Origin: a virus
Lineage: Duplodnaviria > Caudoviricetes
Virus record (IMG/VR): IMGVR_UViG_3300012952_000031
Coordinates: 1 to 47,253 of that record
Length of the DNA stretch: 47,253 nt
Direction: 5' to 3' (one strand)
Each line of letters starts with the position of its first letter. Within the stretch, counting starts at the first letter, position 1. Below are positions 1,051 through 30,200 of the stretch, one piece after another. The translations under genes were made by a program, and so were the position numbers. The notes under the pieces were generated by a model that worked only from the letters and a program-made list of their open reading frames with translations, made no database searches and had not been told where the DNA came from.

Positions 1051-4000
1051 TTATGCCTGTGACTCACTCCAAGAAATACGTCCTGTTACGGTGAATGGGT
1101 TAGAGTTGCTAACACCCGTCAAGTCAACAGGTTCTGCGGTAACCGTTAGAAGGTCAGGTCCATTCGGGAAGATACCGTCACCACCAAGGATGGAGTTACC
1201 CATCTCAATGATAGAACTAATATCGTAAGAAGTAGATCCTGTTAATCTGTTACCACTGTTGTCAGTTGTACCACCAGCAGCACGGAAGGAGAAGATCTCA
1301 AGTCCACCTGCGTAGGTGTCATCATTCGTGTGCTTAATCAGCTGAGATAGTGAAGGAGGTGCCACGTCTAAGTACGAGTCTGTACTTAATGATGGGTTCA
1401 AGATTAGTTTAACTTCGCACTCGTGTGTGTTAACAACGTCAAGAGAGTTAAGTTGTAACTGCATTCGGTTGATAATTTCACGTTCACCTAGTGTACCAGA
1501 TAGAGATGAGTCAACAGAAGGTGACAATCTAATTGATACAAGAGGTATCTGCGAAGGAACCACGTTATCAGTACCAGCAACCGCACCAACACTCATTGTT
1601 GTTCCTGAAGGAACAGCAGGGTTACCTAGTGCGGTGTTAATAATGTTTGTACCTTGGTTCCACTGGAAGGTTGTGTTACCGTTAGAGTCAACGTATAAGA
1701 AGTCAACTTCTAAGTTACCACCTGAGGATCTAGATCTGTAGATAGAACGTCCATCCACGAACCAACCATTAGCAACAGTATTTTGATAAACTGTTGAACC
1801 CTGTGTTAGAACACCTGATTGACCAGTACTGAAGAATAATCTGAGATAGAATCTCTGGTTTCTAGACCAACCTTCACCAACATCATACTGTCTCTTAACT
1901 TGAGAGTTCTGATTAGTTGAGGAACTCTGTGACACTTCGTTAGTAAACTTAAGCAAGTTACCAGACGCTGTGAAGAGGTATGCTTTGTCAGAGTCGAATC
2001 GACCATCTGTGATAACAGAAGTACCCCAGTGGAACAGACTTGGAATGTAAGTAGGAATTCCTTCGTTCTGAATCTCGTAACGAGCAGGTAAGTTACCTGA
2101 TCTGAAGTATGCTTCGGTCAAACGGTTGTTGTGCTTGAATTCGTGTACGTACTTGACGTGACCATTTTGATCTTTAAATCCAAAGCGAATCTTACCAGCA
2201 CCATACCAAGAGTAATCCATATATGCCATCTGGATCTTAGTAATATCCAGAATGAATCCAGAAGGACCAGTTCCATCACACTTATCGTGATTCCACTCAC
2301 CTTGAGGAATCTTAGTGTTAATTGTCTTAGTAAGAATAATATTTTCAGCAGTAATACCTTTGTACTGAGGCTGAATAATCATTCTTTGGTTATTCACAAC
2401 ACGAATCACTTTATGTGATTGTCCACGAATAACAACGTATTCTCCTGCTGCAACTTGAGCACTAAATGTTGTGGATGATCCAGTAACGATGTTAGATCCC
2501 TTAGCAACAGATACACGACCTGTTAACTGAGTTGTGGAACTACGGCGAACGGCGTTCAGTGTAGAACCATCGTACTCGAAGTACATACCATTTTGGAAGT
2601 CGTACATACCAGCACGTACGTTGGAGTTAACCCAATTAAGTACGTGGTAACCTAAGAATCCAGAAGCAGCAGATGTTGTAGGTGCTTGATCAAGATTAAT
2701 AGTGAAACTAAATGCATTGTATACAACTGCAACTGGGTAAGTACCATTGTATGCTTCATCAGCAGAATCAACAAACTGTATGTTTGTACCTACTTCTAGG
2801 TTGTGTGGTAGTTTGGTTGATATAAGAACACGATGAATTGTACTACCGTCAACATATGGCCAGTAGTAAGCAGATGTAGCAGGGTTCTTAGGACAGAAGT
2901 TGATAGCGAGAGAACACTGTATACCTTTACCTGACTGGTAACGGAAGTATCTACGTGTCTGTCTACAAATTTGACCGTCAGGTGACTTACTGGTTCCAAT
3001 TTCCATACCACCGTCAAACGGTCTGTGTAGGAAGTATCCATCTGGACGTACATAGATCGAAGTATCGATAAAGTACTCAGTGTTACCAGAAGAACTACCA
3101 GAACCTGTAGTGAATATAGCATTGTCAGCCATTAGGAGTTGAGTGTCATCCTTAATAGCAGAAATGGTTGTTTCTACAATTGTAAACTGACCAGCTGAGT
3201 CGTTATTTACATATCTGAAGCTATCACCAACCTTGAAGTAACGTGTGAAGGTAGTATCAGTACCAGTAGCAACACGTGAACCAGTTGTAACTGCGATAGT
3301 ACCATTACCTACAACCTGTCCATCCATATTGGTGTGGATCAGTTTCTGTGCAGGTGTCTGTGAACCACCAGAAGTTAAGTTAACTTGAGTACCAGCTTCA
3401 GCAAGTGTAGTAGTCTCTGCAAGTTTGATGTGATCTTGATCAACTACGATAACGAAGTAGTCTCTGTTATCTGTCAATCCACCAACAGTTGTACCACCAG
3501 CATCTTGATAAATTACACGTTGTCCCGTTCTCATAAAGTGATTTGGGAGGTTTATCGTATGGTTAGTCGTATCGATTGCACCACTGTTACCAACTGTCCT
3601 TGAATCGAATGTCTTCGTCGTAGGAACAACTTGGAATGGAACGTCAACAACGAGTTGAGTTTCACTCTTGACCTGAGATACATTGTAAGCACCGTCAGTC
3701 GTACCGAAAGCAGCAGTCTGGTTCTCGAAGACCTGAGTACCCGATCCAGCCGAAGTAAGATCGACTTCTGAACCTGGCCAGGAGAATCCAAGAGAAGATC
3801 CAAGTGCGAACCTATCGTTACTAACAACTCTGACATAGTATGTTTGGTTAGGAGTTAAGTTACCTATCGCAGTTCCAGACGTTGTATAGAATAAACGTTC
3901 TCCTGTTGATAAGTTATGATTCTCATAATAAAGTGTGTTTCTTTGTGGGTTCTGGAAGATACCTGTCATTCCATAAGTACCACGAGCATCAATTAGTCTA

Positions 4001-6432
4001 TATGCTGAAGACCAAGTATACTCTTTAATTCTAAATCTGTTATCATCAACTCTTTCAACATATACAGTCTTAGGTAAACTTATTGTTGAAATGCTACTAC
4101 TGCTTGAATAGTAACGAGGATCGTTACCAGCAGTCTTAGTAATAGTTACCTGATCGTTAGTTGTAGCACCGTGATCTTCAACATAGAATGTATCGTTATC
4201 ACTTGTACGATCGTTAACGAGCATTAAGAATGCGTTACCGTAATAGTTTTCACTCCATCCCCAGACCCAAGATCCTTGATGATAAACATAGTTGTACCAC
4301 CAACTATATCCATATCTGTAATGGAATCCATCGTTATATCCTAAACTATAATTGTAATGATAGTTGGATGATCTATAGTTACTTCTGTCGTATAGTGGGT
4401 TGTAATCTCCATTAGATAGAGTTGTTGGAGACTCAGGTAGGTAGTCATCATATGTCCAACCACCATTCCAACCCCAAACTGAGTTACCACCTAGGTTCCA
4501 GTTGTTATTGAACTTACCACCGTAACTGGAGTTATTAAGATTACCAGAACCATTATACTGCTTACGATCCATAGTTAGGAAGTAAGCTCTATTCCACCAT
4601 TGGTTTGACATTCCATTTCTGCCACTATATTCAGCAAAGTCATATCCTGAATACTGTGAACCTTGAGTCCAAGCAGACCATCTCCATCTCCAATACCAAT
4701 CCCACCAAGGTTTTTCGTCAGTTACATATCTGTGTACTAAAGCAAAGTTATGCTTACCATAGTTGTATGTTGGGCCAGTTCCTTGTAAAGAACTACCGCT
4801 ATTCTCAAGATTAATTATACCGTTGCTACCTGGGTTACCACCATAGTATGCACTGTTATAAGCGTTTGAAAGTTTAACTACAGCAGTACCACCATCAGAA
4901 CCAGAAGTAGATTCTACTCTAGTATAGTAAATACCATTACGCTGTAAGTTCTCAATACAGTAATCACCTGGGTTTGGATAGTAAAGTAAGCAATACCTAG
5001 AACGCATATAGTTAGCGTTACTACCTTTTAAGGTAACAGTATGGTTACTATAATCTATATCACCATCATTAATAGTCCAGAGAGCAGTTGGTTTATGATC
5101 CCAAGGCTGGAACTCCGTCATATCTGGAGTCAGAGTTGTTGACGCTGTATTAGGATAATCAATTATAGGTGTTCCATCACCAGCAGTTCCTGTTGGATTG
5201 GTAATCTGTAGAATCTTAGGTGAAATGGTGTTAACGAAGTACAATGCAGTACCGTTAGAGAAACCATTTTCATACTCAGTATCTAAAACAACTTTAGAAG
5301 TTGAAGATGCTGAGAAATTAATTTCAAAACCAACACCACTATTACCTACGGTAGCATCGTAAGCATATAGAGTAGAAGGAGTGTTATCAGTAACGTAGAT
5401 ACGAACATAAGCATCAGCAGTACCTTCAGTACCGTTTACGTATACACCGTCAGTATAAGCAACACCACCACCGTGGATACCATCAGCAGTTGTACTTACA
5501 CGGAATGGATGACTTATGTTAGATGTATCATCTAATTTGAAGATGTACATACCGTTCTTATTAACGGTAAATACAGTACTTGCTTGAGCAATTCCGTCGA
5601 TTGTAAAGTATGCTTGTCCAGCAATATCTAAAATACCAACAACATATTCAAATGTATCAGCAACAATACCTTTAGATGTCTGAAGAGCAATGGCAGACCC
5701 TTCATAAAATAGACCTGGAATAATACTTGTATAAGAACCAGCAGCATCACCAGTAACTGACTGGGTAGCACGTGCCTTATATGTAAAGGTTGTTGGTGAT
5801 GGAACTGACTGAATTAGGTATGAACCTTCAGCAGTTGTTGATGCAAGACCAGATACAACAATAGGAATACCTGGTGTAAGACTGTGCTCATATAAAGTCG
5901 TAACCGTTACAGTGTCTGAGTTGGCTGTAACCTCAACAGACTCAATAAACGGAATTGTTGTGTCTGATGTAGCAGAATAAGTAGAAGGAATGTTGTTAAC
6001 CAACTGTAGAGTTTCCCACTTAGTTGCCTGTGGCCCGTACTCAAAGTCGGTGTCAATCATCGTTTCAGGGTTTGAAACTCTGAGTTTCGACACTGGGTCA
6101 ATTAGTGTCTCAGACGGTTCAAACGTTGCTGCTTCTGATTCGATGAAAATCTGGAGAATATCACCAGAATCCATAGTGCTGGTATCAGCAGCTAAGGAGA
6201 TAACTGTTTCTTCTGCTGTCTGATTGAAATCGCAACCAGTGTCAGCAGCAGATGGAGGATTAAATCCTTTTGTAGGATCCGAGAAGTTGTAAAGAATCTC
6301 GTTATCCGTAATATTGGTAATGAGGAGTATTCTATTACCAGAAATGTTATCCTTAATAGTAACCGTACCACCTGTTAAAGTCGTTGGATCGTACGGTACA
6401 AAAGAATAATCACTGACTAGTTTCTTTGCCAT
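1051..6432 (-). CDS. Large virion structural / putative receptor-binding fibre protein
   Basis: 1793 aa, Thr/Ser/Gly-rich beta domains; N-terminal RILLITN..YNFSDP and KLRVSNP..DTDFEYG motifs; repeated HxxxTG..YYV domains; central aromatic-rich segment. Confidence 0.75.
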   Translation of the reverse strand: MAKKLVSDYSFVPYDPTTLTGGTVTIKDNISGNRILLITNITDNEILYNFSDPTKGFNPPSAADTGCDFNQTAEETVISLAADTSTMDSGDILQIFIESEAATFEPSETLIDPVSKLRVSNPETMIDTDFEYGPQATKWETLQLVNNIPSTYSATSDTTIPFIESVEVTANSDTVTVTTLYEHSLTPGIPIVVSGLASTTAEGSYLIQSVPSPTTFTYKARATQSVTGDAAGSYTSIIPGLFYEGSAIALQTSKGIVADTFEYVVGILDIAGQAYFTIDGIAQASTVFTVNKNGMYIFKLDDTSNISHPFRVSTTADGIHGGGVAYTDGVYVNGTEGTADAYVRIYVTDNTPSTLYAYDATVGNSGVGFEINFSASSTSKVVLDTEYENGFSNGTALYFVNTISPKILQITNPTGTAGDGTPIIDYPNTASTTLTPDMTEFQPWDHKPTALWTINDGDIDYSNHTVTLKGSNANYMRSRYCLLYYPNPGDYCIENLQRNGIYYTRVESTSGSDGGTAVVKLSNAYNSAYYGGNPGSNGIINLENSGSSLQGTGPTYNYGKHNFALVHRYVTDEKPWWDWYWRWRWSAWTQGSQYSGYDFAEYSGRNGMSNQWWNRAYFLTMDRKQYNGSGNLNNSSYGGKFNNNWNLGGNSVWGWNGGWTYDDYLPESPTTLSNGDYNPLYDRSNYRSSNYHYNYSLGYNDGFHYRYGYSWWYNYVYHQGSWVWGWSENYYGNAFLMLVNDRTSDNDTFYVEDHGATTNDQVTITKTAGNDPRYYSSSSSISTISLPKTVYVERVDDNRFRIKEYTWSSAYRLIDARGTYGMTGIFQNPQRNTLYYENHNLSTGERLFYTTSGTAIGNLTPNQTYYVRVVSNDRFALGSSLGFSWPGSEVDLTSAGSGTQVFENQTAAFGTTDGAYNVSQVKSETQLVVDVPFQVVPTTKTFDSRTVGNSGAIDTTNHTINLPNHFMRTGQRVIYQDAGGTTVGGLTDNRDYFVIVVDQDHIKLAETTTLAEAGTQVNLTSGGSQTPAQKLIHTNMDGQVVGNGTIAVTTGSRVATGTDTTFTRYFKVGDSFRYVNNDSAGQFTIVETTISAIKDDTQLLMADNAIFTTGSGSSSGNTEYFIDTSIYVRPDGYFLHRPFDGGMEIGTSKSPDGQICRQTRRYFRYQSGKGIQCSLAINFCPKNPATSAYYWPYVDGSTIHRVLISTKLPHNLEVGTNIQFVDSADEAYNGTYPVAVVYNAFSFTINLDQAPTTSAASGFLGYHVLNWVNSNVRAGMYDFQNGMYFEYDGSTLNAVRRSSTTQLTGRVSVAKGSNIVTGSSTTFSAQVAAGEYVVIRGQSHKVIRVVNNQRMIIQPQYKGITAENIILTKTINTKIPQGEWNHDKCDGTGPSGFILDITKIQMAYMDYSWYGAGKIRFGFKDQNGHVKYVHEFKHNNRLTEAYFRSGNLPARYEIQNEGIPTYIPSLFHWGTSVITDGRFDSDKAYLFTASGNLLKFTNEVSQSSSTNQNSQVKRQYDVGEGWSRNQRFYLRLFFSTGQSGVLTQGSTVYQNTVANGWFVDGRSIYRSRSSGGNLEVDFLYVDSNGNTTFQWNQGTNIINTALGNPAVPSGTTMSVGAVAGTDNVVPSQIPLVSIRLSPSVDSSLSGTLGEREIINRMQLQLNSLDVVNTHECEVKLILNPSLSTDSYLDVAPPSLSQLIKHTNDDTYAGGLEIFSFRAAGGTTDNSGNRLTGSTSYDISSIIEMGNSILGGDGIFPNGPDLLTVTAEPVDLTGVSNSNPFTVTGRISWSESQA

Positions 6433-6449
6433 TAGTAGTCCCTGAGTTT

Positions 6450-6457
6450 AATTTATA
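6450..6457 (-). promoter_or_regulatory. Late promoter variant TATAAATT
   Basis: AATTTATA on + strand, 17 nt upstream of the 1793-aa ATG. Confidence 0.5.
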
Positions 6458-6476
6458 CGCATATAATAAAAAATTC

Positions 6477-6704
6477 TCAACCGCCCAAGGCAATTGAGAG
6501 AGCTGCAATACTTGAAGTTATGCCCACACCACCTATCTTTAGGGTCTTAGCAGTACCTGTCAAGTTGACATCTCCACCGATGTCTAAGTCGCCAACCACG
6601 TTTCCTGTTGCGACGTTTCTTAGGTTCCTTGATCCATCAAGTACTTCTGTACCAGAAACGGACAGTCCGTTCTTGGCATTAAAATTAACGTTTGAGGTTG
6701 CCAT
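6477..6704 (-). CDS. Mini fibre/linker protein (N-terminal KNGL motif, C-terminal SIALGG)
   Basis: 75 aa; MATSNVNFNAKNGL... IAALSIALGG; has its own late promoter and a purine-rich leader. Confidence 0.75.
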   Translation of the reverse strand: MATSNVNFNAKNGLSVSGTEVLDGSRNLRNVATGNVVGDLDIGGDVNLTGTAKTLKIGGVGITSSIAALSIALGG

Positions 6705-6753
6705 CGTGGTTCCCTTTCCCCCCGATCGATATCGATATAGGTTTTACTTCAGT

Positions 6754-6761
6754 TATTTATA
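6754..6761 (-). promoter_or_regulatory. T4 late promoter TATAAATA
   Basis: Perfect consensus (TATTTATA on +), intergenic. Confidence 0.85.
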
Positions 6762-6764
6762 CAA

Positions 6765-7940
6765 TTAGACATTCATTGTCGTTCTTGTGAACTGAATAAA
6801 GGTTCCTATTGTGGCAGTTGCACTTAATTCTAGATTAACACCATTGATCGTAGCAGTGAATGTGGCCACTGCAATTCCTGGATTTGAATGAACATCAGCA
6901 AACATTGTCACGAATGCATCTGTTCCATCGTGTGTGAGAATTACTTCACTAGTTGAGACGTGTCCACCGTGTGAAGCATATACTGTATACTTAGCACCAC
7001 GTACATTTGCAACGATTAATGAGTCAAATACTTCTGTCGCAGATGTTGTGGTTAATGTTCCAGCACTAATACCTGTCTTGTCTGTGATATTAATATGATC
7101 TGTATTATTTGTTGTACCAATCTTGATTACTGAAGGAGTTGATATATCTCCTGTAGTTGATAAAGTACCAGTTACAGTAGTATTTCTCGCTAATGAAATT
7201 GCGGTATCATCAATTGTAATCTGAGGAGTAGCAGCAACACTATAATTTGCTTCAAGATGAATTGCTGTCGAAGATGATTTAATTAAAGATTGAGAAGCAC
7301 TACTATCATCAAACGTCAATACGTTATTAACTATAACATCAGTTGCTCCACACTGTACAGATCCTTGAAGATTATTATTTTGACTTCTCAATACTAATGA
7401 ATTACTGCTTCCTACAATATTGGATCTAGTAGCACCTAATCCAAACTCAATAAATCTACCAGAGTCCAGATATATGTCACCAGCTGAAACGTGTAAACGA
7501 GCAGTTGGGTTTGCAGTTCCTAATCCTATGTAATGATTGATCTTATCAACTACAAGTGTTGTGCTGTCTAGGTTAACATTACCATTTACTTCTAGGCCAC
7601 CCATAGTAAAGGTAGCACCTTGATTTAATTTGATTGGATTAACACTTCCATCTGAAGGTTCTCCAACATCTATTGTATCTCCAATAACCAATCCATAAAA
7701 ATCGATACCTGGATTGGGAGGATCAGAAAATGTTAATTGATCGTTATTGATTTGGAAAGCAACATTTGCTTCCTGCATTACACCACCAAGTGATATAAAC
7801 AACTGCAAAGGAGACCCAGGATATATTACCTGTCCACCAACACGCAGATTGAATATAGTTTGCACACCATTAAACTGTGCAGCTACATCATCCAGTTTAC
7901 GGATGTTACCTATTTTTGGTGTGACACCTAGATACGCCAT
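6765..7940 (-). CDS. Tail fibre-like protein (MAYLG N-terminus, HDG-type C-terminal domain)
   Basis: 391 aa; MAYLG..P, LDDVAAQFNG...LGGVMQE domain, IGLGTANP shaft motif; C-terminal DSL..GAKY..HDGTD domain paralogous to the 514-aa protein. Confidence 0.75.
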   Translation of the reverse strand: MAYLGVTPKIGNIRKLDDVAAQFNGVQTIFNLRVGGQVIYPGSPLQLFISLGGVMQEANVAFQINNDQLTFSDPPNPGIDFYGLVIGDTIDVGEPSDGSVNPIKLNQGATFTMGGLEVNGNVNLDSTTLVVDKINHYIGLGTANPTARLHVSAGDIYLDSGRFIEFGLGATRSNIVGSSNSLVLRSQNNNLQGSVQCGATDVIVNNVLTFDDSSASQSLIKSSSTAIHLEANYSVAATPQITIDDTAISLARNTTVTGTLSTTGDISTPSVIKIGTTNNTDHINITDKTGISAGTLTTTSATEVFDSLIVANVRGAKYTVYASHGGHVSTSEVILTHDGTDAFVTMFADVHSNPGIAVATFTATINGVNLELSATATIGTFIQFTRTTMNV

Positions 7941-7956
7941 TGCTTTTAATTAGATA

Positions 7957-8931
7957 TTATGTAATGATAAATTTACCATCAGTACCAGAAGCACCAGCAT
8001 TGCCACCATTACCAGCAACACCTCTGTTTGGATCTGCATTATTTCCTGGAACTTCATCAGTTCCACCTAGAGTTGATCCAGCAATAACTCTGGTCTGATC
8101 GATAAAGGAAGATCCTCCACCACCACCGTGACCATTTGTATCACCTGAACCACCGCCACCACCTCCGTAGTAGCCGCCTCCACCGCCACCACCAGGATAA
8201 GGAAGCAACATTCCTGCTGTACCACCCTGAAGAGAACTGCCATCTACAGCATCAGTGAAACCAGCAAAACCACCTGCGGTTTGACTACCTCCACCACCTC
8301 CTCTTTGATCGAAGAGTTGTCCTATTTGGCCATTAGAAGCACCACCAGCACCACCTATTTGGTCGGCACCAGCACCACCACCACCAGCAGCAATCAATAT
8401 TGCATTAGATTGAACAGCAGAATTGCGGAAGATTCCTGTGAATCCACCACCACATCCACCATACTCAACACCAGCATTCATTCCACCAAGAGCACCACCA
8501 CATTCACCAGCAGTAACACCAGCATTAGAACGTGGATCTCCACCTCCACCAACACATATATGTAATATATCTCCTACAAGTAGTTCATATCCACCAGCAG
8601 TATATCCACCAGCACCACCTATTCCAGCAGTTCTGGATCCACCACCACCTCCTGCACCCCACATAGTGAACTGTACAGTACGTACACCAGTAGCAGAACC
8701 TACTAATTGAATAGTATATTCTCCTAGACCTAATGTTTGAGGACCATTAGTAAGATCATAATCAGTAGGACTTCCACCAACAGGTGTTATTCTAATGATA
8801 GGTGTAACCTCAAAAGCAGATTCACGAATTCTGGAGGTATCATAAAAAGGACGCAAATGTCCTTCATCGGTCATAGGATCTAACCGACTTTCATAGTTTA
8901 ATGTTTTAAGATTACCTATACGAAAGCCCAT
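7957..8931 (-). CDS. Glycine-rich domain protein, putative fibre tip/adhesin
   Basis: 324 aa; WGAGGGGG...GGGG...AAGGGGAG...GGGGGYYGGGGG...GGGGSSFI pattern of the Gly-rich polyglycine-II domain (ALK/LTK-like, gp38-like fold). Confidence 0.75.
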   Translation of the reverse strand: MGFRIGNLKTLNYESRLDPMTDEGHLRPFYDTSRIRESAFEVTPIIRITPVGGSPTDYDLTNGPQTLGLGEYTIQLVGSATGVRTVQFTMWGAGGGGGSRTAGIGGAGGYTAGGYELLVGDILHICVGGGGDPRSNAGVTAGECGGALGGMNAGVEYGGCGGGFTGIFRNSAVQSNAILIAAGGGGAGADQIGGAGGASNGQIGQLFDQRGGGGGSQTAGGFAGFTDAVDGSSLQGGTAGMLLPYPGGGGGGGYYGGGGGGSGDTNGHGGGGGSSFIDQTRVIAGSTLGGTDEVPGNNADPNRGVAGNGGNAGASGTDGKFIIT

Positions 8932-9305
8932 TATGTTTCTACATCTCCGATGGTTATAATGGTTACTTTTTGAGACGAATCAGTTAAACCAAATATAGCA
9001 TCATTTTCATCTGTTAGAACAATAGGATAATTTAGTTCAACGTAGAATGTTTCACCAGATGCCAACTCCTGTCTAAGAAACTGTTGAGGTTTAGTAGCAG
9101 TATCTAAAGTGTCTAATGCACCTACGTTATCTTCTATAAAATACAAGTTGACAGTTTCTACTGTCGTAGCACCATTAAAGATTATGAAACCTTTAATATA
9201 AGTTTTTGTTGTGGCAGGATTTATATAAATCGCAGCAGCAGTAGATGTAGGAACAAACTGTATATTCCTATTATTGTACTTTATGTTTCCTCTTGAAAGA
9301 GCCAT
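8931..9305 (-). CDS. Small beta-sandwich virion protein (putative fibre adaptor)
   Basis: 124 aa; aligns by eye with the 214-aa protein minus its insertion; TAATG overlap with the downstream gene. Confidence 0.7.
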   Translation of the reverse strand: MALSRGNIKYNNRNIQFVPTSTAAAIYINPATTKTYIKGFIIFNGATTVETVNLYFIEDNVGALDTLDTATKPQQFLRQELASGETFYVELNYPIVLTDENDAIFGLTDSSQKVTIITIGDVET

Positions 9306-9326
9306 TGTATACTAGAGCCTCCGTGG

Positions 9327-9333
9327 TATTTAG
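9327..9333 (-). promoter_or_regulatory. Late promoter variant CTAAATA
   Basis: TATTTAG on +, overlapping the stop codon of the 455-aa gene. Confidence 0.55.
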
Positions 9334-10697
9334 CTAAACAACCAGATGTCTCGCATTTCATTGCGATCACTGAAATCCAGATCAACAGTACCGTCAAAAT
9401 TTTGAGCAGAAACAACAAGGTTGTATCCTAATTCTGCTGTAGCGGTAGCTGGCATAATTACATTACCTAACCTAATTCTATTAGGTGTAGGGCCACCAGG
9501 ATCTGCTTGTATGGTGACACCACTTATGGTAGCATTATTTAGTGTCGGTGCACTTAATATACCAGCACTAGCATCTGCTTTTAAGGCAATCGAAGTATTA
9601 ACAGTTGCAGCAAAGTTTGGATCATCTCCCAATGCAGCAGCTAGTTCATTCAATGTATCAAGATCTGCTGGTGCAGATGAAACTAAATCAGAAAGTTCCT
9701 GTCTAACAAAACTAGTAGTTGCTAACTTAGTAGAGTTATCATTTAAAGTCTGTAAAGGAGCAGTCGAATCACCTGCAAGGTTAACAGTGGTACGATCAGA
9801 AAGGGATCCGATAGAATTAGCAGTAGTAATATAGGTTCCATCAGATACTAAAATATCAGTTGATACACCAGAAACAACTGCAAACATATGGAAGTTGTTA
9901 CCGTTCTGAACTAGTTCAGTTTTACCACCAGTAGATGCATCCTCAATAGTAAGTTTTGGTAAATTATTTGCTTTGATACGAAGTGCATTTGAACTTCCTT
10001 GACTATCGATATCAAGCTTAAATGATGGACTATAGTTTCCTATACCTATAGATCCATAACAATCAATATCTCTTACATTAATATCATCAGTTATTAGAAG
10101 TTCAGTAGCACCAGATCTTCCATAAAAAGAAGATACCGCACTGGTAGGTCCAACAAGTGAGGATGAAAATCCAATATGTGTTATCTCAATTTCACTATTA
10201 ATATTAGGAGCATCATCAAAACGAAGAGTAAGGTTCTGAGAAACTAATGTATATGCATTCTTATGCTGCACCAAACCATCGATGGTAACCATAATAGCGT
10301 GGTTATTTGGTGGTGCCTTTGTCATTACAAAGTCAGTTTGTACACCATCAGCAGTATACGTTTCAGAGAAGATCTCTGAACGATCCATATTATTAACTAC
10401 AGAACTCTGTACCTGTCCAAAGAATACATCGTTAGTTGCAGGTGCTTCTGAAAAATAAATTCTATCTCCTTGTACCCAGAATGATCCAGGTGCAGCTTGT
10501 GAACTACCTGTATTAGGTTGTTGATAAACACCGTTCAAACTGACGCTAAGTTGCATCGTTTGACCAACTGTTACAGGATCATTATTTGTCGTACGCAATA
10601 AAAAATTATTTGTAGTCCCATCAAATTGAGATGAAATATCTTGGATCTCCTTGATCTTTGATACGTACGCTTCTGGATTAAGACCAAGATATGCCAT
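9330..10697 (-). CDS. Tail fibre-like protein (MAYLG N-terminus)
   Basis: 455 aa; DISSQFDG..LNGVYQQP and ADGVQTDF..IDGLVQ domains; NDNSTKLATTSFV and APADLDTLNELAAALGDDPNFA tail-fibre motifs (P2 gpH-type); hydrophobic C-terminus RDIWLFS. Confidence 0.8.
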   Translation of the reverse strand: MAYLGLNPEAYVSKIKEIQDISSQFDGTTNNFLLRTTNNDPVTVGQTMQLSVSLNGVYQQPNTGSSQAAPGSFWVQGDRIYFSEAPATNDVFFGQVQSSVVNNMDRSEIFSETYTADGVQTDFVMTKAPPNNHAIMVTIDGLVQHKNAYTLVSQNLTLRFDDAPNINSEIEITHIGFSSSLVGPTSAVSSFYGRSGATELLITDDINVRDIDCYGSIGIGNYSPSFKLDIDSQGSSNALRIKANNLPKLTIEDASTGGKTELVQNGNNFHMFAVVSGVSTDILVSDGTYITTANSIGSLSDRTTVNLAGDSTAPLQTLNDNSTKLATTSFVRQELSDLVSSAPADLDTLNELAAALGDDPNFAATVNTSIALKADASAGILSAPTLNNATISGVTIQADPGGPTPNRIRLGNVIMPATATAELGYNLVVSAQNFDGTVDLDFSDRNEMRDIWLFS

Positions 10698-11341
10698 TAG
10701 ACTGATACCTCCATAATACTAGCAATGCAATCTAGGGAGCTAACAGTATCACATTTGACTAATATTTCATCACCTAATCCCACATCAACTTTAACTATTG
10801 AATCACCTGAAGTATGTGTAGTTGCTGTTGAGTTTGCTTGTGCTCTATCTATATTTACTGTAGTATCTCCAGCACCTGCTAAAGAAGTAACTTTCATAAT
10901 CTCATTATTAATCTTGAGATAATCTCCAGTATTAATCTTTGGACCTGTGTTATCAGTAATAGTCATTGATACAACACTAGGAGATGCTATGTTAGCCGCC
11001 AAAGTGTCAGTAACCGATGGGGTCGAATCTCTATAACCGTCAGGGTTATATTCTAAAATAATCTTTTGTCCCTGCATAACTTCAAACGCTGATCCAGCAG
11101 GGATGGGAACGTTCTTTACAATCATCACCTGATCCTTTGGATATTCAGGATCGATGGAATAAGCTGGGTACCTATTAATCTGCACTTCAGCAATCACAGC
11201 AGTCTGTGTGGTATTTGCTAAGTTACATCCAATTACAACCGTCTGTTTCTCGGTTTGTGTACCAGTAAGTTCAACAGCATATATGATAGCTGCTGATGTT
11301 CCTACGTTTTGTTTGGAAGTTGAGGTAAATTTATTTGCCAT
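10697..11341 (-). CDS. Putative fibre adaptor protein with inserted beta domain
   Basis: 214 aa; MANKF...VIGCNLAN...VPIPAGSAFEV..GQKIILE [insert] GDEILV...SIMEV; TAATG overlap with the next gene. Confidence 0.7.
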   Translation of the reverse strand: MANKFTSTSKQNVGTSAAIIYAVELTGTQTEKQTVVIGCNLANTTQTAVIAEVQINRYPAYSIDPEYPKDQVMIVKNVPIPAGSAFEVMQGQKIILEYNPDGYRDSTPSVTDTLAANIASPSVVSMTITDNTGPKINTGDYLKINNEIMKVTSLAGAGDTTVNIDRAQANSTATTHTSGDSIVKVDVGLGDEILVKCDTVSSLDCIASIMEVSV

Positions 11342-11347
11342 TGTTAA

Positions 11348-12001
11348 TTAACCGAGAGCGATAGCAAGTGCAGTAGCGTCAAGACCCGCTTCAACAGATA
11401 CACCGACCTGTGCAGCAAGGGTATTCACCTCAGCCTGCAATTCGTTAATCGCATTAACGAGGTTTGCTTTGTTTTGAGTAGTGAGGTTAAGAAGATTACC
11501 AATGGTAATGTCCTTTATTTCGTTAATAGCAGCAACTATACTAGATTTAGATGTTGTGCTTAAACTAGAAAGAACACCAATAATAATGTCTTTTGTTTCA
11601 TTAAGGGCAGCAACCAAACTGGTGTGATCAGCAATGTTTGCTGACAGACCTGCAAGGTTACCTACATCTTGATCAAGTTCATTTATTGCATTAACAATAC
11701 TAGTTTTATCAGCAGTAGTCAGATTAGACAAACCTTTGATAATACTATCAGTAATGTAATTAACTGCTTCGACAACATTGTCTTTATCGTTAGCGGGAAT
11801 TTCGCTAGTGATAGAAGCAATAGGACCAAGTTCTGTGTCTAATTCTAGCAGACAATCAGTGATAGTCTGAGCAACTAGATTGTTTGCTACAGACTGGGCA
11901 ACGATTTTGCCAGAAAAATCACCATTGTCAACACCGATCTCGTTAATCTCGACACGTTGTTGTTCAAATGTAAAAGTTTTGTCTACTGTTCTTACTGGCA
12001 T
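11348..12001 (-). CDS. Segmented coiled-coil fibre (fibritin/whisker-like) ending in AIALG
   Basis: 217 aa; about 5 repeats of ~26 aa LxTxxKxxIVxAINEL; C-terminus DATALAIALG. Confidence 0.7.
   Translation of the reverse strand: MPVRTVDKTFTFEQQRVEINEIGVDNGDFSGKIVAQSVANNLVAQTITDCLLELDTELGPIASITSEIPANDKDNVVEAVNYITDSIIKGLSNLTTADKTSIVNAINELDQDVGNLAGLSANIADHTSLVAALNETKDIIIGVLSSLSTTSKSSIVAAINEIKDITIGNLLNLTTQNKANLVNAINELQAEVNTLAAQVGVSVEAGLDATALAIALG
11430..11830 (-). repeat. ~26-aa tandem protein repeats (LxTxxKxxIVxAINE)
   Basis: DKDNVVEAVNY, DKTSIVNAINEL, DHTSLVAALNET, SKSSIVAAINEI, NKANLVNAINEL. Confidence 0.85.
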
Positions 12002-12023
12002 TAGACTTATGGGTTCTCGGTTT

Positions 12024-12031
12024 TATTTATA
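12024..12031 (-). promoter_or_regulatory. T4 late promoter TATAAATA
   Basis: Perfect consensus, intergenic. Confidence 0.85.
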
Positions 12032-13576
12032 CTAGGCAGTAATAAGTGATCTGAAGAATTTAACTGTGTTTACAGCATATACTGGTGTAAATACAATTTC
12101 AATATTTGCTCCATTGTACTGAGCAGTGATGGTACCTAGTCCACCCTGTGCAATACCACCTGAAGTCATAGTTGCATATTCCTCAACATATATGTCAGTT
12201 CCATCGTGAAGAATAAGAACTTCTTTTACCTGAGTATATGCACCTGATGTGCATTGAACCACATACTTTCCACTAGTGTAACTAGCGTGAGTAAATGAAT
12301 CAATAACAGCAGCAGTGATAGCAGCAGTAGTTGCTGTTCCTGCATCCTGTCCGTGAATTTCCTTAACTGTAATTAAGGATCCACCAGCTGTATCATCATA
12401 ACGAATCTTTTCATCTCCACCTAGACACATTCCCATTTTATCATTATCTGGACGGTAGAAACCATTGTCCTGATCCTGATAGAAACTGATACCAGGAATG
12501 GCCTCAGTACCGTCACCAGCACCAGTGAAACCAGACAGGTTAGTTAGTCCGTTACCATCTCCTATGAATGCAGTTGCTCCAACATTACCATTAACTTGTA
12601 GTATTTGAGCAAGAGCGTTGTTAGGATCCTGTCCAATACCAATTTTGTTATTAGTAGGATCACACTTGAATAATGCAACGTTAGAACCAGTTGGTTCGAT
12701 AGTAACTACAGCACCATCGAACTTAACATACGAGTTAGCACCACCTACATCAATTGCTTCTGCATCTAGATTACCTTTAAGAGTACCTAGAGTATAAGTT
12801 AAGTCACCAGTAGTGATACCAGTGAAAGTACCAGTACCCAAGGCAAACTTATCTTCTGATTCATCAAATCCAATAAAACCATTATCTCCACTACCACGTT
12901 CAATAACTATACCAGCATCACCAGTTGGTGCACCAACAGTACCATTACCAAGCTCAATTAATTTATCACCAATTACAGTGTTGGTTGTAGAAACTGTAGT
13001 CGTACCACCAAGTACTGTAAGTTCACCGTTAATTACTACATTATTTGCAACTTCTAAATCTTGTGTTGGTGATCCAACTCCAATACCAACCTTACCTTCT
13101 CCAGTAACAACTAGAGCATCGGTTAATGAGTTGACATTAGTATTACTACTACCACCAGCAGGTGATGTCTTAATACGTAGATATCCACCTGAGGCAGAAC
13201 CAGTAGATGCTCCACCTGAGATGATTAGATCAGATCCAGCAACGTCTGTACCACTAGCATCATCTCTACCAACCTTACCAGTAACAGATAGTGTAGTAGC
13301 TACAGATGCTGCATTGAAATTAAATGTACCAGTTCCAGCAATCTTTAAAGGTGTGACAGCACCATCCTGTATAACAGCAGTTCCAACAGCTTCTAGTCCA
13401 CCAGTAGAACTTAGTTTCTGAACTGTAATACTGTTATCGGCTAGTTTTAATGTAGTGATTGCACCGTTTCTAATAGTAGAAGTGGTGACTGCCTGGGTAC
13501 CAACTCCGCTATCTAGCTTCGAGTCACTAACCAGCCCATCGTTCAAACCAGTTCTTCTGATTCTTGTTAGAGCCAT
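12032..13576 (-). CDS. Tail fibre-like protein (MALTRI N-terminus, HDG-type C-terminal domain)
   Basis: 514 aa; IxxGAITxxKL repeats, VGIGVGSP shaft, IGDKLIELG..DAGIVIERG, PGISFYQDQDNGFYR; C-terminal DSF..SGKY..HDGTD domain. Confidence 0.78.
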   Translation of the reverse strand: MALTRIRRTGLNDGLVSDSKLDSGVGTQAVTTSTIRNGAITTLKLADNSITVQKLSSTGGLEAVGTAVIQDGAVTPLKIAGTGTFNFNAASVATTLSVTGKVGRDDASGTDVAGSDLIISGGASTGSASGGYLRIKTSPAGGSSNTNVNSLTDALVVTGEGKVGIGVGSPTQDLEVANNVVINGELTVLGGTTTVSTTNTVIGDKLIELGNGTVGAPTGDAGIVIERGSGDNGFIGFDESEDKFALGTGTFTGITTGDLTYTLGTLKGNLDAEAIDVGGANSYVKFDGAVVTIEPTGSNVALFKCDPTNNKIGIGQDPNNALAQILQVNGNVGATAFIGDGNGLTNLSGFTGAGDGTEAIPGISFYQDQDNGFYRPDNDKMGMCLGGDEKIRYDDTAGGSLITVKEIHGQDAGTATTAAITAAVIDSFTHASYTSGKYVVQCTSGAYTQVKEVLILHDGTDIYVEEYATMTSGGIAQGGLGTITAQYNGANIEIVFTPVYAVNTVKFFRSLITA

Positions 13577-24228: not shown

Positions 24229-24242
24229 TATTTATATTTATA
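24229..24242 (-). promoter_or_regulatory. Two overlapping T4 late promoters upstream of gp8
   Basis: TATTTATA at 24229-24236 and 24235-24242. Confidence 0.85.
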
Positions 24243-27200
24243 GATCTAAATCTGCGGTGATTATATAGTCACCTGCGACATAGGAGTCAGTATTGGCATC
24301 ATTAAACCACATCAACCTGACACCATATTGATCTGATGTCATATTTGTAGAATCATCCATAGAGATACGGATTATCGTTGTGGCAGTTTGAGCAGTGGCT
24401 GAGATATTGTGGGTTACTGTACGCCAATCATCAAACGTAGAGTCTGAATAAGTCGCAACTGACCCAATATCATTGAATGTAGTTCCACCATCTATACTGT
24501 AACTCAGCATCAAATCGTTTATTCCAGCAGAAGGTGTATTACCACCATTGCTACCGTTACCACGAATCGCACTAAATGTTACCGTATTGTATGTAGTCAA
24601 GTCAGTAGGAGCAAATGTTGCGGATCTAGCTCCACTTGCACCTGAGAATAAGAGATAATTGATGTTGGAAGCAAAACCTCCTGTGCCTGTACCTGTACCA
24701 CCTGCAACGACTGATGCCCCTACATTAGTAGTACCGAAATCATAAGCACTAAATCCTTTTTCGACTACACCTATTGGATTGACACGTGTACACCCAACAA
24801 AACGATCGGCAAATGCTTGTGTATACGTAATCTTCTCTCTCTTATCTTGATCACTGGCACTTCCAATAATTAAACTACCTCCACTAGCAGGGAATCCAGC
24901 AGTAGATGTAACAAGTAAAGTATCTGTACCATTTGGATTATCCAAAGCAGGATACTTTAAAGTTGTACCAAAATGTATTTTTGATCCTTGCATAAAGTTG
25001 AAGTCATTGGTATCACCAGGAGCTACAACTTTAGAACCAGCAATTTCAGCATTTTCAAAATCACCAACGGCAAGGGTAGGATAGAAATCAGAGAAGAATC
25101 CAATAGTCATATCACCCATAACGTAGTTAATAGTATTTCCTTTACCATCCACATAAGAACCAGTGTTATTAGTGGTACTTTGAGGTTGGATTTCAAACTT
25201 GAAGCTTTCTAGGTACTCTAGATGAGGACCAAGAAGGCCAGGACTGAATGTATCCTTACCAATCAATGAATCACCTAAATTACCAGCCTGTCTCTCAAGA
25301 CAACCTGACTGAGCACTAATCTTAGTTTCTGTCTTCTTATATTTCGATAAAGCAACTGACACACCTTGTACACCACCAGTACACTGAGTTTGTGTAACTT
25401 TAGTTCCTTTATGATCACATTTAAGATCTGCTGGTCCTAATTCAAATAGAATTTGTGGTTGACGTTTTGTGGTAATATCACTCAGAGGAAGAATCTTTCT
25501 AATGATAACTCTAGGATCAGAAGTCCTATTAATCAGATATGAAGGACTACCAGCATTACCAAATACCAATGTGGTACCAAGAGGTAGCATTGATCTCCAT
25601 TGAGGAGCAGAACCACCTTTGAAGATAGTGTCGATATATGATCTAAGACCACAACGAAGATCTATCTGTCTGTTAATACCGAAAGTAGTAAGGTTCTTAA
25701 TATTAATAGGATCCTTACGAATAACGAAATATCCTCTAGTAAATAAAACTTGAGGTGGTACTTTATATCCCGATCCTGATGAAATAATTTCAATATCACT
25801 TACTTCACCTCTAGTAACGATAGCATTTGCACGTGCACCACCACCTGTAGGTGATCCAATAGCAACACCATTTTCATCAAGTAAAGAAGCACTACGGAAA
25901 ACTAGTACTGGTGGTTCACGATAATTCTTGGAAATTTGATCTTCTAAATCATCTGAGTATATTGATGAAGTATAACCATATTCTTGTGATATGTTATTAG
26001 CACTTGCATTAGCAGGTATAAATGCTCCACCAAGACGATCTTCACCTTTATTCAATACATTATCATTTCTCCAGTTAAACTGATTATCAAAGTAAGTACT
26101 GTTATCTCTCTTAGAAACAACAAGACTATTAACACCACCTGGTTTTAGATATTGAAGACCAATAGATTCAGTACCAACAGTACCATCAATATAAATTTTT
26201 TCACCTGGACGGAAATTAGCCTCTACTGGATCAGTGTAAGGATTGCCATCTAGGTAGTTACTATACAATTCTACAGTCTTTCTAGCAGGAACGTAGTTCT
26301 TAACTGTAGCCTGCCATACTATAGCAGAACTAGTATTATTCTGATCAGCATACTGAACCAGAATATCGCCTGGTAAATATTCCTGATTTAACTGTCTACT
26401 AGAAACAAGTGTGTGGTATCTTAATTCTGCGTCAATACGAGCAACAGCTTGTCCACCATCACCCTCAATCTGTCCAGAGTAAGGACCAACGTTAACCACA
26501 ACTTCATACTCATAAGATCTAAAGAATGATCCAACGGTAGTATCACTGTCATAACCAGAGGTTACAAGTGCTTCTCTAGCAGCACGTATGATTGAACGTG
26601 TATCTGCCTCACCGTCGATTTGAATAAGATCTCCTGGTTTCAAATTAGATTCTAATCTATCTTGTCTATTAAATAATCTTTCTCTAAGATCAACGTTAAC
26701 TAGTTCTTCTACTGCTGTAACATTAGCATCAAGTAAAGAAGCACTAGCTCCTCTATCTCTCGTGATACTTATAGTACCACCTTCCCAGTTAACTTTCTGT
26801 GCTGTAACACCTTCGACGAATATAAGGTTCCTAGAACCAGGTTCCCAGTTCTGCTTATAAATTCTACCTCTAGCATACGAATACTCATAGGTATGTGCAT
26901 TAGAACTAGCATCAGTTGATACCCAACAATCAGCACCTTCAACAGGAATGATAACCTGTGTATCTAAAGTTAACTTGAAGAACTTCTTAAATGTGCCAGG
27001 TGGCTCAATATTATATCCTAAGAGAATACGTTCTGGATCTAAACCAAAGTAGTACAGAATGAAGCAAGCAGATCCTGTTGAAGGAGGTTCATTGAAAATT
27101 ACATAGTTATCTTCTATCCTATACGCTACTTTATTTTGCTGAATAACGCCGTTCAATATAATTACAATATTTTGATTTCTTTCTGCATAGAAAGGAACAC

Positions 27201-30200
27201 CACTACGTTCTAATTCAAATATAGTCTGAGCACTATTAAACTGAGGTTCAATAGAATCTAACTTGTAGTACTTACCGTGCTTATATCCGAAGAACAGTTG
27301 TTGAATACCTGGAGCAATAACATCAGTACTAGTAGAAGTAACAGTAGTTAAAGTAGCTTCACTTTGAACATCTTCACCAGCAAGAAATTCCTTCTCAGTC
27401 ATTTCTACCTGAATCTTATTAGGATTAGGGAAGTCCTGAGTTATCGTCATTAGATAGTTGTTGTTATTAAAAGCAGTCTCCTTAATAGTTGTAGTAACTA
27501 TACTAAACAACGTATTGATAGCGGATTCAACTTGAGCACACTGAGGAAGTGAATCAACAGTAATAGTAAGATCTCTATTAGCAGTTAAAGTACTATGAAC
27601 AATAGGCCATCTTTCTGGAATAGTTCTTGCTACATTGGCTTCAAATGTAGTTGGAGATTGTACTGCATCCTCGATTAAAGTAACAAATGTATTAACAGCA
27701 GATTCTACAGCAGCACATTCATTAGATTCCTTAGTGATAGAGGGATCTTTAACTTGTGTCAAACCGTGAGATCCAACTGCATTAACAGTATTACTACGTA
27801 TTACGTTTGCAAGAATAGTCTTTAAATGTCCCATTACATTTAAGACTTCTGGTATTTGGTGTTGAATATGCTCTAAATATCCACTTCTATCAATGAATAA
27901 ATCAGCAGCATCCCATACCCTGTTATTACCACCATACTTAAGGTTCCATACAATAGCCTTAAGAATGTCTTTAACGTCATCGACACAATCACCAAGTGCA
28001 TCGTGTGAAGAAGCACGAGGATAGGTATGGACAGTTTCGTGATTATCCATTGAACAAGTCAATGAAAGAGCATCACGGAAGAACTTAAATCCAGTTCCTC
28101 TAGACAATCTATGTTCTCCAATATCCATTATCAAATCACCTGTAATAGGATCATATCTACCTACAGTTGGTTCGTATGCTAATGGAAGTGATTTACCTAC
28201 AAATAATGTAATTGTACCAGCACCAGCATCTACTGATTGTAGACTTAATGTTCTACCATATGCAGGATCAGTAGGTCTAGGATAAGAATGAGGAGTCTCA
28301 TTTGCATCCATCTGACATCTCATTACAAGAGCATTAGGATCTATTGTGATGGTATTAGAAGTAGTTAAACTATGTCCACCAATTGTAAGAACAAGAATAC
28401 CAGTGTCGGGTGCAAATGTTGCATTAGTTGGAGTAAACTTAGCACCTGTATTAGCAGTAATTGAATTAGTTAATGCTCTATCAAATGTATGCTGATAATC
28501 ACCACCTGTCAGAATTACTGCTCTCTTAACACTATTTGGTAATGAACCTTGATATACGTGAGTAGTAACGTTACTTGAAGGTACTGTAGTATTAACTTGT
28601 ACTTGGAATGTATCACTTGTCTTATTCATTACCTTCAACCAAGAACCAGATGCAGGATCTTTCTTGTGCTCAATACCATCAGTCATAGCCTGATTTGCTA
28701 CGAAACTATGTGCTGTGGTGTTAGTAGAAGGAATAATATCTAATACAGTAACATCGAATGTTTGTCCTGAAGCATTAGAAATTTCTAACCACTTATTACT
28801 TGGGTAATCCGTATACCTAGGATATGAGTGTTGTGTCTGATTCGTGTCTTCTGTACAAGTAAATGTAAGTGCACCATCTTTAAATCTAATCCAATCACCA
28901 TCAGATAAGTTGTGTGTAACACCAACATCTACTGTTAGTACACCTGTACTACCATCATATAAAGTACCATTACCAGCAGTAAAGGAATCAGTTATCGCTC
29001 TAGGATATGCGTGATCATCAGCCTGTCCATTTTCATCACAACGGAATATAACAGCACCGTCAGCAAATTGTACATAATCTCCATTATCAAACCCGTGACT
29101 GGTGATAGTGACTTCCATAATACCCGTTGATGGGGTATAAGTTGCATTAGTTGGTGTCTGACCTACCTGAGGTGAGAATAGATGAGGAGTTGTATTTGAA
29201 GATTTACCAACGTTTGTTACAATAACACCATCTTGCTTAACAATACCATTTACAAGAGCAGAAACAAATGTGTGAACGGTCTCGTTAGTAGAAGGTAAAG
29301 TCTCTAAACATTGTATGTCAAAAGTATCAGGTGTAACATTTGATACAGATATCCACTTATCACTAATAGGATCTGTTGCCCTAGGATATGGGTGCCTGGT
29401 TAAGTTACCATCTTCCGCACAAGTAAAGGTTAATGATCCATCTGCAATCTTAATCTTATCTCCACTTGTTAGTCCGTGACCTTGAGATGTAATGCATAAA
29501 GGACCAGCACCTTGGAATGTATGAGGAACATTATGACTAATAACACCTTGACCACCATTAACATTAACAGTTACACTAGTATCATCTACTTTAAGGATTG
29601 GTAGGAATACATCATAAGCATAATCAGCACCACTTGTAGTATTAGCACCTACTGCTCTAGGATATGTCTTGGTTTGAGTTACGCCATTGTACTCACAACT
29701 GAATGATAGTGAGTTAGCAGTGATCTTAATACTATCGTAAGTAGTAAGATTATGACCAGCACCTAAAGTTATTTGCATATCACCAGATGCAGGACTATAT
29801 GCAGCATCTGATGGTGTAAATTGGAGAGTAGGTACTGTTAGAGTTACTATTCCAGTATCAGGAGCATATGCAGCATTGGTAGCAGTAAGAGGAGTACCTT
29901 CATACTTGATATAAGCAGCATCATCATAATATGGATCAGCTATAGTACCAACACCAACTTCTATTGGTGCAGATGATCCTTGGAATGTATGAGTATAATT
30001 ACCACCACTAATTAATGCACCAGCAGTAGCACTTATGAATGTATGAGCAGAATTAACACTAATAGCACCTTGGCCACCATTAACGTTAAGTGTAATAGTA
30101 GTTCCAGTTGCTGATGTAATCTCTAATGGAGTATCGTAAGCATAATCAGCACCACTAGATGTCCCTGCTCCAGTTGCTCTTGGATATGTGCTTTGACTAG

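Follow-up and report, generated by a model that had tools for sequence, protein, structure and literature searches.

The fibre gene cassette

The genes considered here form a cassette of nine open reading frames (ORFs) on the minus strand of the IMG/VR record IMGVR_UViG_3300012952_000031, at positions 1051 to 13576 of the 47,253-nucleotide stretch of viral DNA (Duplodnaviria; Caudoviricetes) that was analysed as a whole (the window). The original prediction, made from the letters alone, held that the ends of the encoded proteins recur in matched pairs at gene junctions and act as docking peptides and sockets, chaining separate proteins into modular, branched fibres. All of the termini, sizes and overlaps that it named are present in the nine ORFs, whose products follow one another in the order 514, 217, 214, 455, 124, 324, 391, 75 and 1793 amino acids (aa) and are named by their length hereafter. 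The cassette lies directly 3' of a DUF4815 (VrlC-like) gene and two short ORFs, in a T4-like baseplate module. Pfam and PHROG scans identified T4-like gp25, gp6, gp8 and DUF4815 genes on the same strand of the 47-kb record, and the nearest relatives of its gp8 are those of Synechococcus phages (~48% identity). Among close IMG/VR relatives (71–94% for the 124-aa gene), the order of the cassette is kept at 25 of 26 loci. Since these relatives include G001, a complete 187-kb genome carrying photosystem II reaction-centre genes (PF00124), the cassette is likely a cyanomyovirus fibre module. Matches to TATAAATA, the T4 late-promoter motif, are found 5' of the 514, 217 and 75 genes, with weaker matches 5' of the 124 and 1793 genes.

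The 514-aa fibre protein (12032–13576) has a MALT leader and a C-terminal HDG domain (~residues 424–514, 12032–12307; supported by a profile match in G001). It is followed by a putative 217-aa stalk (11348–12001) with PHROG tail-fibre matches, a TFEQ N-terminus that is likely a baseplate anchor, fibre repeats and a hydrophobic C-terminal tail, DATALAIALG-stop (11348–11380), referred to here as the class I plug. The 214-aa protein, or type I adaptor (10697–11341), is predicted to be a single jelly roll with an inserted beta domain of ~80 residues (~residues 107–187, 10781–11023). The next gene encodes a 455-aa fibre (9330–10697) with a MAYLG leader, two QFDG-type domains and an aromatic C-terminal class II plug, RNEMRDIWLFS. 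The 124-aa type II adaptor (8931–9305; phrog_20100, of unknown function), also a predicted single jelly roll, precedes a glycine-rich 324-aa tip (7957–8931) with an M-x-F-R leader, likely a polyglycine adhesin by its match to Pfam PF12810 (ALK_LTK_GRD, E=1.4e-11). A second MAYLG fibre, of 391 aa (6765–7940), ends in an HDG domain (~residues 300–391) and adjoins no adaptor gene. Lastly, a putative 75-aa linker (6477–6704) with a KNGL leader and a class I-like plug, AALSIALGG, precedes the 1793-aa virion protein (1051–6432; phrog_5838), whose N-domain (~6133–6432) may provide AIALG tails with a second socket.

The gap to the next gene is 6 nucleotides (nt) after ...ATALAIALG (217 to 214), 24 nt after ...RDIWLFS (455 to 124) and 44 nt after ...AALSIALGG (75 to 1793). 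The two TAATG overlaps, at 214–455 and 124–324, are both found and are loosely kept in orthologues, the 124–324 gap being -1, 0 or +2. As predicted, the 455- and 391-aa fibres have a common N-terminus (30% over 102 columns, E=1e-7) and the 514- and 391-aa proteins a common HDG domain (E=3e-8). When 9–16 orthologous sequences per gene were compared, the last 15 residues of the 217-aa stalk were invariant (16 sequences) against 68% overall, as were the first 10 and last 10 residues of the 455-aa fibre (16 sequences) against 57%, and the last 10 of the 75-aa linker against 73%.

Class I tails and type I adaptors

The N-terminal half of the 214-aa protein resembles free-standing genes of ~110 aa in the podoviruses HTVC010P, HMO-2011 and HTVC115P and in the myoviruses S-TIM5, Melnitz, S-SRM01 and S-BM3. 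When type I adaptor genes were picked by similarity alone, all eight in seven cultured-phage records were found to sit after an AIALG-like tail. A further adaptor similarity search returned 51 records, and in all five that were opened (OC, GN1, RHph_I1_18, Carin-5 and S-SM2) the order was tail, adaptor and then a gene with a Y-[IL]-G leader, the class to which MAYLG belongs. The pairing of tail and adaptor thus spans podoviruses, myoviruses and Arthrobacter phages. Word-index protein searches returned close relatives only (9 and 19 proteins).

The same pairing was recovered in viral contigs from either side. A scan for the pattern ALAIALG-TAA covered 120 loci of an estimated ~3200 IMG/VR stretches, four of them lacking a downstream ORF; a type I adaptor came next in 105 of the remaining 116, three more had a cut-off ORF with a MANxF start, and eight were followed by something else. 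Conversely, a scan by the start of the adaptor covered 120 loci (118 distinct) of ~3600 stretches. Among 104 adaptors, 92 had the strict tail upstream, 10 a close variant such as LILALG, one a loose variant and one none, the last being parted from its tail by an inserted gene. Two further loci, too short to score, both had the tail, and non-adaptor ORFs that also start with MANTFK had it in 0 of 12 cases. Of 1312 junctions that lack a downstream adaptor, 32 have an AIALG-type tail, and many of these are the junction of the 75 and 1793 families. The pattern is rare in prokaryote genomes (~150 stretches in 596 Gb, against ~3200 in viral contigs), and there an adaptor followed 11 of 39 in-frame tails.

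The proteins that bear the tail are alike only in their last ~10 residues. Entropy is at most 1.1 bits at positions -1 to -7 and rises to ~3–3.7 from -12, and the 62 complete upstream proteins fall into 25 clusters by their N-termini, or 13 by any shared segment; some are stubs of 63–90 aa without a receptor domain. Conservation is at the level of the protein: every Ala codon (four) and every stop codon (three) is used in the tails, along with three Ile and five Leu codons, substitutions are conservative (L/M/F and I/L/V), and the gap to the adaptor varies, mostly from 1 to 60 nt.

Several variants of this arrangement were observed. Six loci hold small adaptor-like genes with weak type I profile scores and tails of their own, namely L083, L098, L224 and L357 (MANP/MAAP starts; tails SMIFGF, ANIFHG, AAMIF and YILAL) and L087 and L260 (MARAYK/MGTLYK starts; tails FLFGGM and LFLAGT), which suggests a third and a fourth class. 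Tails may also stand in series, as at L225, L226, L265 and L266, where a fibre ending in AIAVALG precedes a gene of ~134 aa ending in LILALG or LIVALG and then the type I adaptor. At L127, L155, L107 and L280, a gene of ~149 aa (MANSATV/MADDASV start) lies between the AIALG tail and the adaptor. In the HTVC010P record (L059:6101-7973), the primary fibre is split into ORFs of 448 and 178 aa with an 11-nt overlap, the latter ORF having the AIALG tail at its end; the split is possibly a frameshift or a sequencing error.

Class II tails and type II adaptors

The 214- and 124-aa proteins give no pairwise BLASTP match at E<0.05. Their family profiles do align (hhalign P=94%, E=1.3e-7), and by this measure the 124-aa family is a distant paralogue of the 214-aa family, as the original prediction had it. 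Matches to the type II adaptor (103 in all, locus L505, which is as long as the window, being excluded here and from the junction counts) reduce to 35 distinct junction types, 11 of which come from the clade of the window. By eye, an aromatic tail precedes the adaptor in 33 of the 35, no tail in two and an AIALG tail in none. These class II tails take the form RDxWL[FLM], DITxxLF and the like, with LDIALFG as an intermediate. After clustering of all adaptor junctions (n=223) at 60% identity, type I clusters comprised 34 with AIALG, none with aromatic and five with other tails, and type II clusters none, seven and none, respectively (p=4e-8 for 34/0 versus 0/7). As read from these junctions, the two tail classes sort with the two adaptor classes.

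Leaders downstream of the adaptors

A comparable specificity is seen on the other side of the adaptor genes. Among 1552 distinct junctions, the next gene has a Y-[IL]-G leader in 85 of 128 cases for type I adaptors, in none of 44 for type II and in 59 of 1328 for all other genes. Because no type II adaptor precedes a Y-[IL]-G leader, the MGFRIG start of the 324-aa tip is best described as a different, looser leader class; it had been set beside MAYLG in the original prediction, of which both TAATG overlaps stand and any reading of MGFRIG as a variant of MAYLG does not. Genes that bear a leader away from any adaptor, such as that of the 391-aa fibre, are common.

The complete genome G001 holds a single adaptor of each of the types I and II, one N-domain of the 1793 type, two HDG domains and two MAYLG fibres. 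It is solely this surplus, two MAYLG fibres per type I adaptor, that would point to branching or alternative tips. Two fibres with Y-L-G leaders also come after the adaptor in phage YerA41, and both were detected in its particles, which speaks for the joints. In HMO-2011 (L060:8338-14690) and HTVC010P (L059), a single type I adaptor precedes extended arrays of short genes, whose leaders (MPYIG and MSTLKADTI) and C-termini (GDLA and WPEKP) recur.

The 1793-aa N-domain, the HDG domain and the origin of the stalk

The N-domain of the 1793-aa protein matched 46 phage records, of which eight were opened. An AIALG-like tail lies upstream in six of them (S-CAM1, AG-345-P14, S-BM3, ctQRb9 and the Arthrobacter phages Sonali and Atuin), and no type I adaptor was found across the whole records of Sonali, Atuin and ctQRb9, which favours direct docking of the tail in the N-domain. 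The original prediction had each hydrophobic tail followed by a compact beta domain; the predicted gene order holds at all three junctions of the window, but the 1793-aa N-domain is unlike the adaptors, as its profile is unrelated to that of type I (P=0.35%). The same profile showed no relation to the MAYLG/QFDG domain and nothing significant among PDB sequences. The ESM Atlas links the N-domain to the T7 gp17 N-domain/DUF4183 (0.86–0.87), which is a lead only. At L605, in an Acidobacteriota metagenome-assembled genome (~4001–4360), an AIALG-stop gene precedes an N-domain homologue in a bacterial genome bin.

The linker has an 81-aa counterpart in S-TIM5, between an HDG gene and the type I adaptor. 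This phage and L067 are the two cases, outside the scan for KNGL starts and the clade of the window, in which an HDG domain is followed by a KNGL-like stub, its AIALG tail and an adaptor. The HDG–KNGL link is genuine, though partial. A tabulation within loci selected by KNGL (18 of 21 versus 75 of 283) was inflated by that selection and is not relied on. In the ESM Atlas, the HDG domain falls in unnamed viral clusters only.

Since TFEQ genes at four distant loci sit after VrlC and a pair of short ORFs, the 217-aa stalk more likely starts at the baseplate. A joint between the HDG end of the 514-aa fibre and the stalk was considered and rejected; all 15 junctions of HDG with TFEQ are orthologues of the cassette itself. 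Across genomes, the enrichment of specific termini with specific next genes, which the original prediction had put forward as a check on its pairings, is strong for AIALG with the 214 family, the aromatic tail with the 124 family, the 214 family with the MAYLG leader, and AIALG with the 1793-aa N-domain.

Predicted folds of the adaptors

AlphaFold2 gave all-beta models of the 214-aa (pLDDT 87) and 124-aa (pLDDT 85) adaptors. In a fold search, both matched single jelly rolls with Z of 8–9, including nucleoplasmin-type cores, the KHP40 cement protein, the Ena pilin and a turret chain of HFTV1 (8QPG chain TD, 114 aa, taken as gp30 by its length). The latter aligned with Z 9.1 and root-mean-square deviation (rmsd) 3.7 over 104 residues in one case and Z 8.1 and rmsd 3.2 over 103 in the other. 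For the inserted domain of the 214-aa protein, the best match was a JBD30 baseplate chain (Z 10.6, rmsd 2.1, 79 aligned). Foldseek returned no informative match for either model, the type I and type II profiles found nothing significant among PDB sequences, and comparison with Pfam and PHROG gave no Pfam family above cut-off and, over the jelly-roll part, PHROG matches of unknown function only. A complex prediction with three copies each of the 214-aa adaptor and of the last 40 residues of the stalk reached 0.26 at best, below the mark of 0.32; its stoichiometry was guessed, and it counts neither way.

A 5328-aa baseplate protein of the window (24238–40224) contains the QFDG-type domain, which in the fibres comes after MAYLG, in three internal copies, and it also weakly matches the inserted domain of the 214-aa adaptor. 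In G001, a second cluster of large fibre-like genes (124077–157804), one of them for a 1934-aa protein with a MALT start, has neither adaptor nor AIALG tail. On the 3' side of the cassette lies an ORF of 138 aa (356–772; phrog_35149, of unknown function), which is partly present in L012 and absent from this position in most relatives.

Proposed assembly and alternative explanations

The matched ends are probably physical joints by which separately made proteins are chained into tail fibres, each adaptor class having its own class of tail. The TFEQ start of the stalk would anchor it at the baseplate. At the C-terminus, its hydrophobic tails, probably as a trimeric bundle, would enter a ring formed by the 214-aa jelly-roll adaptor, and on its other face this ring may hold the MAYLG leader of the 455- or 391-aa fibre, and possibly also the MALT leader of the 514-aa protein. 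The aromatic tail of the 455-aa fibre would then enter the 124-aa adaptor, which would bear the glycine-rich 324-aa tip. On the remaining arm, the HDG domain of the 391-aa fibre (perhaps also that of the 514-aa protein) would hold the KNGL leader of the linker, whose own tail would dock directly in the N-domain of the 1793-aa protein. Of the docking reading, the pairings are borne out, while binding, oligomeric state and ring size, retention in the virion and the choice between branches and alternative tips are here inferred.

A wider interpretation can be offered only tentatively, and we regard it as more doubtful than not. The termini would constitute a portable and orthogonal connector code, in which C-terminal plugs of 7–10 residues are combined with class-matched jelly-roll rings and N-terminal leaders and with two unrelated sockets, the HDG domain and the 1793-aa N-domain. 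One stalk would grow a three-armed tree (455–124–324, 391–75–1793 and 514–75–1793), built from parts common to myo-, podo- and siphoviruses whose hosts are cyanobacteria, SAR11, other proteobacteria and Arthrobacter.

Several observations weigh against joints of this kind. The plug-first and adaptor-first viral scans overlap, with 50 of 120 loci in common. At 50% identity, the junction clusters shrink to 11/0/4 for type I and 0/2/0 for type II (p=0.013), and the type I side of this comparison includes loci chosen by their tail. One type II clade (L192, L198–L201) sits after a plug-less gene, and in S-PM2 and Syn1 no tail stands upstream of the 1793-aa N-domain. The MALT leader shows hardly any enrichment after adaptors (5 of 128; after other genes 23 of 1328, a figure that orthologues inflate), and in the scan for KNGL starts the HDG domain lies upstream of only 19 of the 95 KNGL genes with an upstream ORF, so that of the predicted HDG scheme the sharing between the 514- and 391-aa proteins is upheld and the coupling to KNGL is curtailed. 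The jelly-roll matches are ties, which on model comparison speak for a fold and for no function. Lastly, there is the virion of phage YerA41, whose genes run in the order plug (135 aa), adaptor (104 aa) and two fibres with Y-L-G leaders (361 and 386 aa), matched by length and order to g040–g043 in the available part of PMC7354516. There, both fibres are particle-associated, and the plug (g040) and adaptor (g041) are late genes not marked as such in Table S2. This non-detection is weak evidence against a retained adaptor because plug and adaptor yield only three and five tryptic peptides of 7–30 aa, and because the same tail module has five further genes that escaped detection, namely g025, g031, g036, g038 (538 aa) and g039. 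No virion proteomics was found in the accessible portions of the papers on phages OC and Carin-5, and the label "virion structural protein and packaging" on the linker and adaptor of S-TIM5 was not counted, as the whole cluster bears it.

The absence of plug and adaptor from the proteins detected in YerA41 particles would equally suit small jelly-roll proteins that act as assembly chaperones, gripping the tail to start trimerization of the upstream fibre and then being released or remaining as a cap, with the MAYLG fibres attached elsewhere. Chaperone genes placed right after their fibre gene are the rule in tailed phages, T4 gp38 helping gp37 to fold according to the part of PMC6851490 consulted, and class-specific tails fit chaperone–client pairs just as well. 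We nevertheless consider this explanation unlikely: it leaves the class-specific leader after the adaptor unaccounted for, it would have receptor-less stubs of 63–90 aa require folding help, the same tail also precedes the N-domain of a virion protein, and the YerA41 cluster has a separate annotated fibre-assembly protein. In the Pfam and PHROG scans, the adaptors showed no membership in the families of tail fibre assembly chaperones (Tfa, T4 gp38). Two further explanations would dispense with the joint altogether, and both seem very improbable. Non-polar C-terminal degradation tags resemble ALAIALG, and the tails might be such tags, or membrane anchors, masked by the adaptor; a membrane helix would however need more than the hydrophobic run of ~7–9 residues, viral rather than prokaryote sequences hold most instances of the pattern, and each of the two tail classes goes with its own adaptor class. 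The least credible of all is mere co-inheritance, in which tail and adaptor would belong to a single recombination cassette, the conserved stretch serving as a translation signal or as a site of DNA crossover. Adjacent genes do travel together, and the gaps between tail and adaptor are short, but the variation of codons, stop codons and gaps, the conservative substitutions and the spread of the pairing over podoviruses, myoviruses and Arthrobacter phages largely refute it already.

Within the preferred explanation, in which the matched ends are physical joints, it is a separate matter whether the fibre branches. The joints could be real but linear and alternative, with one distal trimer per ring for which the 455- and 391-aa fibres compete, giving a population of mixed unbranched fibres; we give this a little less than an even chance. 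In the section of PMC12494034 on the HFTV1 turret, a single trimeric head is carried by a hexameric base ring, and Pfam and PHROG scans of the nine proteins found no T4 gp10-like branching domain, although a missing match does not exclude one. On the other hand, a single adaptor with many short leader-bearing genes, as in HMO-2011 and HTVC010P, is easier to reconcile with several sites per ring, and the 214-aa adaptor contains an additional, inserted domain.

Relation to known systems and outlook

The T4 long tail fibre with its gp34–gp35–gp36–gp37 hinge and the tailspike complexes of G7C and CBA120 are likewise assembled from the products of several genes that lie in order, and they include small connectors or branch points. 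The adaptors have no Pfam, PHROG or PDB sequence match to parts of either. KP32, K11 and KP34, which are podophages of Klebsiella, have branched receptor-binding systems with a proven docking peptide, and as in the cassette a short conserved terminal peptide docks separately made receptor-binding proteins and permits their swapping (PMC13352976, in the part available). Their peptide, however, lies at the N-terminus and attaches to a branching domain that is part of the first protein, whereas in the window a putative C-terminal docking tail and a leader lie on either side of a separate jelly-roll gene, and there are at least two such classes. The conserved N-terminal docking peptide by which KP32, G7C and CBA120 are recognized has its counterpart in MAYLG, which occurs on two fibres and is enriched after type I adaptors, a matter of conservation and not of binding.

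For the role of the adaptors, the HFTV1 turret is a precedent, by analogy and not as proof of kinship. The N-terminal stalk of a trimeric head is taken up by a hexamer of the turret base protein gp30 (PMC12494034, as far as consulted; PDB 8QPG), and gp30, like the adaptor models, is a small connector with a single jelly roll of ~110 residues. Nevertheless, gp30 sits on a capsid hexamer and is inserted through a beta-barrel stalk of its own, the adaptor genes belong to a baseplate/fibre module, and the chain has 12–16% identity to the adaptors with Z tied to unrelated jelly rolls. The putative order 455–124–324 recalls the S16/T2-type gp38, a glycine-rich adhesin that caps the C-terminal end of the gp37 trimer by aromatic and hydrophobic contacts (PDB 6F45), with the polyglycine-rich 324-aa protein as tip. 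In the parts of PMC6851490 consulted, gp38 attaches without a third protein, through an N-terminal domain of its own that is built of three helices and bears three tryptophans; in the cassette, the aromatic residues are on the tail of the 455-aa fibre and the first 90 residues of the 324-aa tip are without tryptophan. The 324-aa tip has no PDB sequence match to gp38. The chain-like fibres of A1002 are built differently, judging by the available portion of PMC13730344. By analogy, the system would work in the manner of KP32-type and S16 gp37–gp38 docking with different parts, as a member of neither. For the plug and adaptor parts, no known family or solved structure was found in Pfam, PHROG or PDB, and no description of the pairing and its motifs was found in the literature searched, which lay outside subscription journals and included supplements only for PMC7354516.

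The building and reshuffling of fibres in marine T4-like and SAR11 phages are largely unresolved, and such genes are annotated as hypothetical. If, as is likely, the pieces clip together, phages with such genes would have swappable and possibly branched host-binding fibres. A code of joints, if true, would let gene termini give the architecture of fibres in thousands of uncultured genomes and would supply small orthogonal peptide–socket pairs for protein assembly. It would also explain the exchange of tips between unrelated phage families.

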